Assembly (NCBI RefSeq): GCF_050320075.1
Contig: NZ_CP190018.1
From: Escherichia coli
Lineage (GTDB): Bacteria > Pseudomonadota > Gammaproteobacteria > Enterobacterales > Enterobacteriaceae
Length of the DNA: 64,000 nucleotides
Reading direction: 5' to 3' (one strand)
Shown: positions 42,869 through 52,095 of the stretch, piece by piece
Numbering within the stretch: position 1 is the stretch's first letter
Layout of the letters: each line of letters opens with the position of its first letter
Program-made: the position numbers and the translations under genes
The notes under the pieces: generated by a model
Told to the model about the DNA's origin: nothing
What the model saw: the letters and a program-made list of their open reading frames with translations, nothing else
Database searches by the model: none

Positions 42869-42905
42869 GATAATAATTCTTAGTATTAATTTGGCAATCT
42901 GATTC

Positions 42906-42940
42906 TACTCCCCCCCAGTACCTGATACTACCCCCCAGTA
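42906..42940. promoter_or_regulatory. Tandem RcnR operator sites in the rcnA-rcnR divergent region
   Basis: Two TACT-C/G tract-AGTA palindromes (tactcccccccagta and tactaccccccagta), matching the described RcnR TACT-G6-N-AGTA site. Confidence 0.75.
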
Positions 42941-42988
42941 GATTAATAGTGCTATGATTTTTCATATTCTTATTAACCAGGTGTTGCC

Positions 42989-43261
42989 ATGTCTCATACC
43001 ATCCGTGATAAACAGAAACTGAAAGCGCGTGCCAGTAAGATTCAGGGCCAGGTCGTGGCGCTCAAGAAAATGCTCGACGAGCCGCACGAATGTGCTGCAG
43101 TTTTACAACAGATTGCTGCTATCCGTGGCGCGGTAAACGGTCTGATGCGGGAAGTGATTAAAGGTCATCTGACGGAACACATCGTTCACCAGGGGGATGA
43201 GCTAAAACGTGAAGAAGATCTGGATGTCGTTCTGAAGGTGCTGGATTCTTATATCAAATAA
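42989..43261 (+). CDS. rcnR: Ni/Co-responsive repressor (CsoR/RcnR family)
   Basis: 90 aa, divergent from rcnA. Confidence 0.9.
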
Positions 43262-43359
43262 TTTATTAACGCGATTGTAAAACTGCGGTTTTTACTCGTT
43301 TACAACGCGTGCGCTGGACATTACCATCCTCCTCTGCGATTTATCATCGCAATCAAACG

Positions 43360-43483
43360 ACTCGGGGTGCCCTTCTGCGTGAAGGCTGAGAAATACCCGT
43401 ATCACCTGATCTGGATAATGCCAGCGTAGGGAAGTCACGGACCACCAGGTCATTGCTTCTTCACGTTATGGCAGGAGCAAACT
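43360..43483 (+). promoter_or_regulatory. TPP (thi-box) riboswitch in thiM leader
   Basis: ggggtgcccttctgcgtgaaggctgagaaatacccgtatcacctgatctggataatgccagcgtagggaagtc carries the conserved CUGAGA and thi-box elements. Ends at the thiM SD/start. Confidence 0.9.
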
Positions 43484-44272
43484 ATGCAAGTCGACCTGCT
43501 GAGTTCCGCGCAATCTGCGCACGCGTTACATCTTTTTCACCAACATTCCCCTCTTGTGCACTGCATGACCAACGATGTGGTGCAAACCTTTACTGCCAAT
43601 ACCTTGCTGGCGCTCGGTGCATCCCCAGCGATGGTTATCGAAACCGAAGAGGCCAGTCAGTTTGCGGCTATCGCCAGTGCGTTGCTGATTAACGTTGGCA
43701 CGCTGACGCAGCCACGCGCACAGGCGATGCGTGCCGCCATTGAACAGGCAAAACGCTCTCAAACACCCTGGACGCTTGATCCAGTAGCGGTGGGTGCACT
43801 CGATTATCGCCGCCGTTTTTGTCTGGAACTTCTGTCTCATAAGCCAACCGCCATACGTGGTAATGCTTCGGAAATCATGGCATTAGCTGGCGTTGCTAAT
43901 GGTGGACGGGGAGTGGATACCACTGACGCCGCAGCTAATGCGATACCCGCTGCACAAACACTGGCACGGGAAACTGGCGCAATCGTCGTGGTCACTGGCG
44001 AGATGGATTATGTTACCGATGGACATCGTATCATTGGTATTCACGGTGGCGATCCGTTAATGACCAAAGTGGTAGGAACTGGCTGTGCATTATCGGCGGT
44101 TGTCGCTGCCTGTTGTGCGCTACCAGGCGATACGCTGGAAAATATCGCATCTGCCTGTCACTGGATGAAACAAGCCGGAGAACGCGCAGTCGCCAGTAGC
44201 GAGGGGCCAGGCAGTTTTGTTCCACATTTCCTTGATGCGCTCTGGCAATTGACGCCGGAGGTGCAGGCATGA
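43484..44272 (+). CDS. thiM: Hydroxyethylthiazole kinase
   Basis: 262 aa, downstream of the TPP riboswitch. Confidence 0.9.
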
Positions 44273-45069
44273 AACGAATTAACGCTCTGACGATTGCCGG
44301 TACTGATCCGAGTGGTGGTGCGGGGATTCAGGCCGATCTTAAAACCTTCTCGGCACTTGGCGCTTATGGTTGCTCAGTGATTACTGCACTGGTGGCGCAA
44401 AATACCCGTGGCGTACAGTCGGTGTATCGCATTGAGCCTGATTTTGTCGCTGCCCAGCTCGATTCGGTGTTCAGCGATGTGCGAATCGACACCACTAAAA
44501 TCGGTATGTTGGCGGAAACCGATATTGTTGAAGCGGTGGCAGAACGGTTGCAACGTTATCAGATCCAAAACGTGGTACTCGACACCGTTATGCTGGCAAA
44601 AAGCGGCGACCCGCTGCTTTCACCTTCGGCGGTTGCTACGCTGCGCAGTCGATTATTGCCACAGGTTTCATTAATAACGCCAAACTTGCCCGAAGCTGCT
44701 GCCTTGCTCGACGCGCCACACGCGCGCACCGAACAGGAAATGCTGGAACAAGGGCGATCGCTGTTGGCGATGGGCTGTGGCGCAGTGCTAATGAAAGGTG
44801 GTCATCTGGATGATGAGCAAAGCCCTGACTGGCTGTTTACTCGTGAGGGGGAACAACGATTTACTGCACCGCGCATTATGACCCAAAACACCCACGGCAC
44901 TGGTTGTACGCTCTCTGCGGCGTTGGCTGCACTACGCCCGCGCCATACAAACTGGGCTGACACCGTACAGGAGGCAAAAAGCTGGCTTTCATCGGCGTTA
45001 GCCCAGGCCGACACGCTGGAAGTTGGTCACGGTATTGGTCCGGTTCACCACTTCCACGCCTGGTGGTGA
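44269..45069 (+). CDS. thiD: Hydroxymethylpyrimidine/phosphomethylpyrimidine kinase
   Basis: 266 aa. ATGA overlap with thiM. Confidence 0.9.
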
Positions 45070-45124
45070 GCACCGTACTATAGCTGCTTTGGTTATTGTC
45101 AGCCTTTGGCACTGACATTCAGGG

Positions 45125-45952
45125 ATGAAACCAATGCAGCTAAGAATCACCAGTCGAAAAAAACTCACCGCTTTATTATGCGCTCTTGGGCTAATTTCCA
45201 TCGTTGCGATTCATCCGCGTCAGACGGTGAATTTTTTCTATTCGACAGCAATTCAGATTAAAGACTACATCCACTTCTACGGTTATCGCCCGGTTAAATC
45301 TTTCGCTATTCGCATTCCTGCCAGTTACACCATTCACGGAATAGATGTTTCGCGCTGGCAGGAGCGAATCGACTGGCAGCGGGTGGCAAAAATGCGCGAT
45401 AACGGTATTCGCTTGCAATTTGCCTTTATCAAGGCGACGGAAGGCGAAAAGCTGGTGGACCCCTATTTTTCGCGTAACTGGCAACTAAGCCGCGAAAATG
45501 GCCTGCTGCGCGGGGCGTATCATTATTTTTCCCCGTCGGTATCCGCTTCAGTTCAGGCGAGATTATTTCTGCAAACGGTGGATTTCTCACAAGGCGATTT
45601 CCCTGCCGTGCTGGACGTAGAAGAACGGGGAAAATTATCGGCAAAAGAATTACGCAAGCGGGTAAGTCAGTGGCTAAAAATGGTCGAAAAAAGTACGGGG
45701 AAAAAGCCGATTATTTACTCAGGAGCCGTTTTTTATCACACGAATCTGGCGGGCTATTTCAATGAATATCCGTGGTGGGTGGCTCATTACTATCAACGTC
45801 GTCCGGACAATGACGGAATGGCCTGGCGCTTCTGGCAGCATTCCGACCGTGGACAGGTAGATGGCATCAATGGTCCGGTGGATTTTAATGTATTTAATGG
45901 CACGGTGGAGGAGTTGCAGGCATTCGTTGATGGGATTAAAGAAACGCCTTAA
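45125..45952 (+). CDS. yegX: GH25 (lysozyme-like) family hydrolase
   Basis: 275 aa. GH25-like sequence with N-terminal hydrophobic segment. Confidence 0.75.
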   Translation: MKPMQLRITSRKKLTALLCALGLISIVAIHPRQTVNFFYSTAIQIKDYIHFYGYRPVKSFAIRIPASYTIHGIDVSRWQERIDWQRVAKMRDNGIRLQFAFIKATEGEKLVDPYFSRNWQLSRENGLLRGAYHYFSPSVSASVQARLFLQTVDFSQGDFPAVLDVEERGKLSAKELRKRVSQWLKMVEKSTGKKPIIYSGAVFYHTNLAGYFNEYPWWVAHYYQRRPDNDGMAWRFWQHSDRGQVDGINGPVDFNVFNGTVEELQAFVDGIKETP

Positions 45953-51389: not shown

Positions 51390-52095
51390 ACAGAAAACCC
51401 CCAGCTAGGCTGGGGGTTCCGGAAAGCTTTCAGCTTTGAGCCAGTTATTCAAACCCCTTTTGATTTGTTAAAACACCTTGCGGTCTGGCAACTGCAAGTG
51501 TCAAACAAGAAATCAAAAGGGGGTCCCAATGGGGGACGAAAAGAGCTTAGCGCACACCCGCTGGAACTGTAAATATCACATAGTTTTTGCGCCGAAATAC
51601 CGAAGACTGGCGTTTTACGGAGAGAAGCGTAGGGCGATAGGCAGTATTTTGAGAAAGCTGTGTGAGTGGAAAAGCGTACGGATTCTGGAAGCAGAGTGCC
51701 GCGCAGATCATATCCATATGCTTGTGGAAATCCCACCCAAAATGAGCGTATCCGGCTTTATGGGATATCTGAAAGGGAAAAGCAGTCTGATGCTTTACGA
51801 GCAGTTTGGGGATTTGAAATTCAAATACAGAAACAGGGAGTTCTGGTGCCGAGGGTACTATGTCGATACGGTGGGTAAGAACACGGCGAAGATACAGGAC
51901 TACATAAAGCACCAGCTTGAAGAGGATAAAATGGGGGAGCAGTTATCGATTCCATATCCGGGCAGCCCGTTTACGGGCCGTAAGTAACGAAGTTGAATGC
52001 AAATGTCAGATCGTATGCGCCTGTTAGGGCGCGGCTGGTAACAGAGCCTTACAGGCGCATTTGAAAAACCTCCGGCTATGCCGGAGGATATTTAT
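51390..52095 (+). mobile_element. IS200-family insertion sequence (boundaries approximate)
   Basis: Contains an IS200 TnpA gene. Left-end perfect hairpin aacccccagc-tag-gctgggggtt (51396-51418) and subterminal hairpins 52015-52060 and 52069-52090. About 0.7 kb, as expected for IS200. Confidence 0.75.
51529..51987 (+). CDS. tnpA: IS200 transposase TnpA (HUH/Y1 family)
   Basis: MGDEKSLAHTRWNCKYHIVFAPKYRR ... HIHMLVEIPPK (HuH motif), 152 aa. Near-identical to recalled Salmonella/E. coli IS200 TnpA. Confidence 0.9.
   Translation: MGDEKSLAHTRWNCKYHIVFAPKYRRLAFYGEKRRAIGSILRKLCEWKSVRILEAECRADHIHMLVEIPPKMSVSGFMGYLKGKSSLMLYEQFGDLKFKYRNREFWCRGYYVDTVGKNTAKIQDYIKHQLEEDKMGEQLSIPYPGSPFTGRK

Follow-up and report, generated by a model that had tools for sequence, protein, structure and literature searches.

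The thiM TPP riboswitch of Escherichia coli in the rcnR-thiMD-yegX region: identity with the K-12 element and two predicted folds

The thiM riboswitch of Escherichia coli K-12, which is reportedly the '165 thiM' RNA of Winkler, Nahvi and Breaker 2002 and whose aptamer crystal structures are said to be those of Serganov et al. 2006 and of Edwards and Ferre-D'Amare 2006, is among the riboswitches that have been studied most thoroughly: more than 20 years of work have yielded published crystal structures, probing data, folding kinetics and its coupling to Rho. Firmicute thi-box leaders, for example those of Bacillus subtilis tenA and thiC, have the same aptamer fold and the same ligand, with a terminator/antiterminator read-out; the thiM leader differs from them in being read out through sequestration of the SD, without a terminator. 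Within E. coli, PMC5499598, PMC5234074 and PMC11487190 describe the thiC and thiB (tbpA) TPP riboswitches as sharing with the thiM element the RF00059 class, the ligand and an OFF logic that operates via translation initiation and Rho, while their expression platforms and loci are different; neither is located in the DNA analysed here. For the thiC riboswitch, PMC5234074 also describes a regulatory pause at the start codon.

The window (the whole stretch of DNA that was analysed, 64 kb in length) is E. coli chromosome from the rcnR-thiMD-yegX region. A search of both strands of the whole window with all Rfam families at their gathering thresholds returned a match to the TPP model, RF00059, at residues 43353–43449 of the plus strand; it scores 71.8 bits, where 54.3 is the gathering score, with an E-value of 3.6e-12 for that search space. 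The match is full-length (model positions 1–105 of 105) and is the sole TPP match within the window on either strand. The original prediction, which placed a TPP riboswitch with a thi-box aptamer at 43360–43483 and named a covariance-model search as the way to check it, is thereby borne out: that search has been run and gave a significant match. All 21 of the P1–P5 consensus pairs that were enforced in the folding described below are standard pairs, such that the three-way junction and the two sensor arms can form. Two more consensus pairs of the covariance model (CM) are mismatched, 43358/43437 in P1 and 43372/43383 in P3, and were omitted from the enforced set. The thiM aptamer lacks P3a, a hairpin that is optional in the Rfam consensus, with 11 model columns deleted in the CM alignment. 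Both cores that contact the ligand agree exactly with the model consensus, namely the CUGAGA of J3/2 and the ACCUGAUCUGGAUAAUGCCAGCGUAGGGAA of the P4/P5 arm.

The aptamer lies in the sense orientation in the 5' leader of thiM, with thiD as the next gene (Table 1). P1 closes at residue 43436, 47 nt ahead of the thiM ATG at 43484, and this gap constitutes an expression platform of about 47 nt. In an identical E. coli genome, RefSeq carries a feature named "TPP riboswitch" upstream of thiM, at the equivalent of 43353–43449. The element is almost certainly the thiM TPP riboswitch of E. coli, which acts in cis as an OFF switch and belongs to the leader, of about 150 nt, of the thiMD mRNA. The predicted range holds nearly the whole aptamer plus the platform, starting one base inside the 5' strand of P1 and ending at the base before the ATG. 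It had also been said that the aptamer immediately precedes the thiM SD; the order is right, the immediacy is not, as P1 ends 37 nt before the GGAG, and these 37 nt are the switching sequence rather than filler.

Table 1. Positions of the features of the thiMD leader and its neighbourhood, in window numbering.
Feature	Position	Strand	Remarks
rcnR	42989–43261		upstream of the thiM leader
rcnA		opposite to rcnR	upstream
Candidate sigma-70 promoter	43299–43327	+	TTTACA, 17-nt spacer, TACCAT; 9 of 12 consensus matches
Putative transcription start of the thiMD leader	43335 (about ±2 nt)	+	mapped from the numbering of PMC5499598
Aptamer proper	43359–43436	+	pairs taken from the CM alignment
P1	43359–43362/43433–43436	+	
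P2	43363–43366 and 43368 with 43393 and 43396–43399	+	
P3 hairpin	43369–43386	+	
J3/2	43386–43391	+	CUGAGA
P4	43405–43408/43427–43430	+	
P5	43411–43414/43421–43424	+	
Shared strand, aptamer 3' half	43419–43437	+	UGCCAGCGUAGGGAAGUCA; 3' strands of P5, P4 and P1; predicted partner of the anti-SD without TPP
Small hairpin of the TPP-free fold	43440–43451	+	GACC-ACCA-GGUC; unconstrained MFE
Anti-SD (switching segment)	43453–43466	+	UUGCUUCUUCACGU; pairs in silico with the aptamer 3' half (free) or the SD (aptamer enforced)
SD region	43473–43480	+	AGGAGCAA, GGAG at 43474–43477; 3' strand of the predicted sequestering helix
thiM, hydroxyethylthiazole kinase	43484–44272	+	TIGR00694 (NCBIfam equivalog), 334 bits, cut-off 256.4; RefSeq
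Likely rut (Rho loading) site	43520–43555	+	C-rich, G-poor stretch in thiM; 36–44% C and 0–12% G in 25-nt windows
thiD, hydroxymethylpyrimidine/phosphomethylpyrimidine kinase	44269–45069	+	TIGR00097 equivalog, 361.5 bits, cut-off 204.95

The start of thiD overlaps the stop of thiM by ATGA, an arrangement that fits a single operon. That the element controls thiMD, as had been predicted, is upheld by the equivalog matches of the two genes downstream, by the RefSeq annotation and by identity with the K-12 sequence for which TPP-dependent control has been published (PMC1920254, PMC5499598). An open reading frame track cannot show a riboswitch; the value of recognising it lies in a correct annotation, which accounts for the response of thiMD to vitamin B1 status. 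When residues 43262–43520 were compared by megablast with complete E. coli genomes, they were found in 5,424 of 5,426, in 761 of these at 99% identity or more; for the leader, identity is at least 95% in nearly all E. coli. Under the megablast matches, RefSeq annotates both "riboswitch" and thiM.

Alignment to K-12 MG1655, with a base-by-base list of differences, shows residues 43354–43501 to be the same base for base. Within 43295–43501 the single difference is a T-for-C substitution at 43353, which falls in the 5' flank and is unpaired; others are at 43287 and 43294, upstream of the promoter region, and are scattered in thiM from 43502 and 43507 onwards. The element occupies the same intergenic position between rcnR and thiM as in K-12, with the same thiMD operon downstream. 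Residue N of PMC1920254 (Rentmeister et al. 2007) corresponds to window position 43348+N: all 15 residues named in that paper (G40, U46, G60, A61, A84–U87, A96, A99, G100, G101, G126, G127 and G129) agree, and the span G40–U46 also maps correctly onto the window. Since the window is identical to the K-12 element, the published probing and genetics of K-12 apply directly to it, including TPP binding, which has been published for the identical sequence (PMC1920254 and references cited there). The finding is thus already known: this is the reference thiM riboswitch itself, beyond mere membership of its class, and nothing new follows from the finding itself because the copy is identical to the one that has been studied. 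The basis provided here consists of the aptamer match, the genomic context, the identity with K-12, two in silico folds and the lack of an intrinsic terminator; for TPP binding, for the probing of the two states and for the part played by Rho, we draw on published work with the identical sequence.

The transcription start can be placed by means of PMC5499598 (Bastet et al. 2017), which numbers from the start site and gives codons 9–40 as nt 174–271. This numbering puts the AUG near nt 150, and so the start would be at about residue 43335, 8 nt downstream of the candidate −10 box. The candidate sigma-70 promoter agrees in position with this start and is the only promoter-like site on the plus strand in 42900–45300; taken alone it is weak evidence, since the number of promoter-like sites is not above that expected from shuffled sequence.

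Two alternative folds are predicted for residues 43349–43513. In the unconstrained MFE fold the aptamer is not formed; instead, residues 43419–43434 (nt 71–86) pair with 43456–43473 (nt 108–125, containing the anti-SD CUUC), and the SD is left partly open. For the second fold, the 21 aptamer pairs were enforced as a proxy for ligand binding. Residues 43453–43460 (UUGCUUCU) then pair in silico with the SD region, forming an 8-bp helix that buries the SD, and the mean probability that the GGAG is unpaired goes from 0.37 in the free fold to 0.00. Additionally, CAGGUC (43446–43451) pairs with GACCUG (43493–43498), which belongs to thiM codons 4–5. The aptamer-enforced fold costs 3.0 to 8.1 kcal/mol over the free fold, depending on the strictness of the aptamer constraint, an amount within what nanomolar TPP binding can pay. 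Enzymatic and chemical probing has revealed the same pairing of nt 71–86 with nt 108–125 in the TPP-free RNA (PMC1920254). According to the same paper, chemical modification of nt 126–129 of the SD occurs in the absence of TPP and is reduced in its presence, and nt 95–101 are an unpaired loop in the free form that becomes paired once TPP is present. The published two-state mechanism is reproduced by these folds at the level of the folding model.

With TPP scarce, the 3' half of the aptamer would pair with the anti-SD (43454–43473), so that the aptamer could not close and the GGAG would be open to ribosomes. With TPP bound, P1 to P5 would be locked, releasing the anti-SD, and UUGCUUCU would pair with AGGAGCAA; the second helix, 43446–43451/43493–43498, would shut around the start codon and translation initiation would be blocked. 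The ribosome-free message would then expose the C-rich stretch at about 43520–43555 to Rho, and termination by Rho within the first 40 codons or so would also lower the thiM and thiD mRNA.

Leaders of other species were compared as well. A scan of 100,044 species genomes with a TPP-core pattern gave at least 120 loci, from which those with thiM directly downstream were kept by tblastn with ThiM; 12 leaders, among the matches listed, were aligned, from Escherichia, Citrobacter, Enterobacter, Pseudescherichia, Superficieibacter, Serratia and one MAG. The aptamer, including CUGAGA and ACCUGAUCUGGAUAAUGCCAGCGUAGGGAA, is invariant in all 12 of these Enterobacterales thiM leaders, which is partly due to the search pattern having required those columns. 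In the platform, hardly any variation is seen in the anti-SD CUUCUU or in GGCAGGAGC, whereas the sequence between and around them varies. Core pairs are kept in 81% of the cells for the SD helix and in 79% for the anti-sequestering helix, while 78% of the cells are paired in the 43446–43451/43493–43498 helix, which has no both-sided changes. In the 12 leaders, both-sided changes in either alternative helix do not exceed those of shuffled controls, and no significant covariation was found. The platform pattern is one of conservation and not of covariation, and constitutes no independent proof of either helix. Upon folding, the contrast between an open and a closed SD is obtained for 4 of 14 leaders only (two E. 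coli types, E. albertii and Superficieibacter); in the remaining genera, other SD-covering helices or no change are predicted, and these genera seem to differ from E. coli in the details of the platform, as judged from the predicted folds.

Nucleotide-level conservation is also seen in thiM codons 3–6 of the same leaders (window residues 43490–43499, CCUGACCUGC in most genera), which in the aptamer-enforced fold of E. coli are complementary to residues 43446–43451. A sample of 12 leaders does not allow coding constraint to be told apart from RNA structure as the origin of this conservation.

A riboswitch of this class might instead act chiefly by premature, Rho-independent termination in the leader, as in many Firmicute thi-box leaders. 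The same aptamer class is indeed read out by intrinsic termination in other bacteria. The thiMD mRNA also falls with TPP (PMC5499598), which speaks for this alternative. However, a search of 42900–45300 for G+C-rich hairpins followed by a T-run found no intrinsic-terminator-like site (0, with 2.2 expected in shuffled sequences), which argues against classical attenuation as the read-out, and the thiM platform carries the anti-SD/SD helix instead. The fall in mRNA has been attributed to Rho acting inside the open reading frame, as a result of the translational block, and a translational fusion of 6 codons is still repressed (PMC5499598). An intrinsic terminator as the thiM read-out was rejected accordingly, and we regard this alternative as extremely improbable. 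The Rho step has its own counterpart in the window. PMC5499598 locates the rut site around nt 200 and reports that Rho ends transcription at nt 231, 237 and 262; by the numbering of that paper, these three points map to about 43565, 43571 and 43596. The C-rich stretch of Table 1, recognised from composition only, lies at nt 186–220 or so from the putative start and likely coincides with the published rut site. Because the published control includes, beyond SD occlusion, Rho termination inside the first 40 or so thiM codons, the functional unit reaches past residue 43483, the end of the predicted range.

It is no more credible that the match is a chance or decayed thi-box look-alike that plays no regulatory part. 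Nothing specific speaks for this, and the folding energy of the leader is ordinary: compared with shuffled sequence, the whole leader shows no excess stability (z = −0.33), a measure that is uninformative for a bistable RNA, in which two folds compete. Against it stand the E-value and the full-length match to the model given above, the ligand-contacting motifs, all of which are intact, a sequence identical to the experimentally validated K-12 element (PMC1920254, PMC5499598), conservation in nearly all E. coli at the level already mentioned and an aptamer that is unchanged across several genera. An equally slight chance attaches to the signal stemming from a coding or antisense feature, for which a minus-strand open reading frame of 53 amino acids (43292–43453) and an out-of-frame one of 79 amino acids (43453–43692) would be the candidates. 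Both are present in the mechanical list of open reading frames, but that list is explicitly no evidence of genes, and the conservation of the region tracks RNA motifs and helices, not codons. As genes, the two frames were rejected, being unannotated in RefSeq genomes of identical sequence. The thiM TPP riboswitch, working by SD sequestration coupled to Rho, is the reading retained, and none of the observations speaks against it.

Around 700 genomes cover less than 80% of the 259-nt query (43262–43520), and two causes of this were identified, an insertion and an upstream variant. The insertion is present in E. coli ST131 strain 751 (NZ_CP103562.1), where homology to the window begins at residue 43389, inside the aptamer. 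Between rcnR and thiM of this strain, a 10,981-bp insert (occupied site at 1872258–1883252 of NZ_CP103562.1, residues 38259–49253 of the analysed piece, L125) is flanked by 14-nt direct repeats of AGAAATACCCGTAT. In the window, AGAAATACCCGTAT occurs once, at 43389–43402 in the aptamer core; this copy is unoccupied and the riboswitch is intact. The exact right-hand junction of the insert is found in 76 of the 5,426 complete E. coli genomes (about 1.4%). A tyrosine integrase (WP_077123661.1) adjoins the left repeat, and the insert also encodes a DUF6387 protein, an HTH regulator, an Icd-like protein, a D5-type primase/helicase, a ClpP-protease/major-capsid fusion and tail-assembly remnants; by its gene set it looks like a phage satellite. 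The 600 bp of the insert proximal to thiM gave no megablast match in the phage collection.

At both junctions of the insert a valid aptamer is lost (18.9 and 33.3 bits, compared with the gathering score of 54.3), and the insert comes between thiMD on one side and the promoter and 5' half of the sensor on the other. The leader that is left before thiM in the carriers still folds in silico into the SD-open helix. We lean slightly towards the view that the aptamer core AGAAATACCCGTAT doubles as the chromosomal attachment site of an integrase-bearing, phage-satellite-like element of about 11 kb. A shallow literature search returned no relevant paper on thiM as an integration site or on an insert in the riboswitch. 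If the view is correct, carriage of the element would turn thiMD from TPP-repressed to TPP-blind expression, and would provide a natural example of an integrase that splits a riboswitch and thereby deregulates the operon.

The upstream variant is found in about 515 genomes, O157:H7 and others, in which the DNA upstream of about residue 43350, up to some 3 nt before the Rfam match, is unrelated or diverged. Between rcnR and the riboswitch these genomes have an extra 2.2 kb or so, as in O157:H7 ATCC 43890 (residues 231–2503 of the analysed piece, L122), with three small open reading frames; their products are an outer-membrane protein, a hypothetical one and a fragment that is HTH-like. Because the upstream DNA (about 43262–43350) is polymorphic, the candidate promoter at 43299–43327 is not common to the upstream-variant genomes, and no consensus-like promoter was found on the plus strand of the O157:H7-type variant upstream region. 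The 50 nt or so of the variant proximal to the riboswitch resemble the region upstream of thiM in Pseudescherichia vulneris. In at least one genome, that of E. coli strain cM2a (NZ_CM176588.1), the leader match halts at query position 170, about window residue 43431 in the 3' strand of P1, and resumes elsewhere in the record, which suggests that the riboswitch is interrupted there in a different way, possibly by an IS element.

Two other RNAs in the window were matched by the Rfam search, both over the full length of their models. The Hfq-binding sRNA STnc490 (RF01405) is located at 51396–51519 on the plus strand and scores 143.9 bits, where 56 is the gathering score. The antitoxin sRNA OrzO-P (RF02083) is at 20216–20291 on the minus strand, with 101.3 bits where 60 is the gathering score, and implies a type I toxin-antitoxin locus of the zorO/orzO type nearby.
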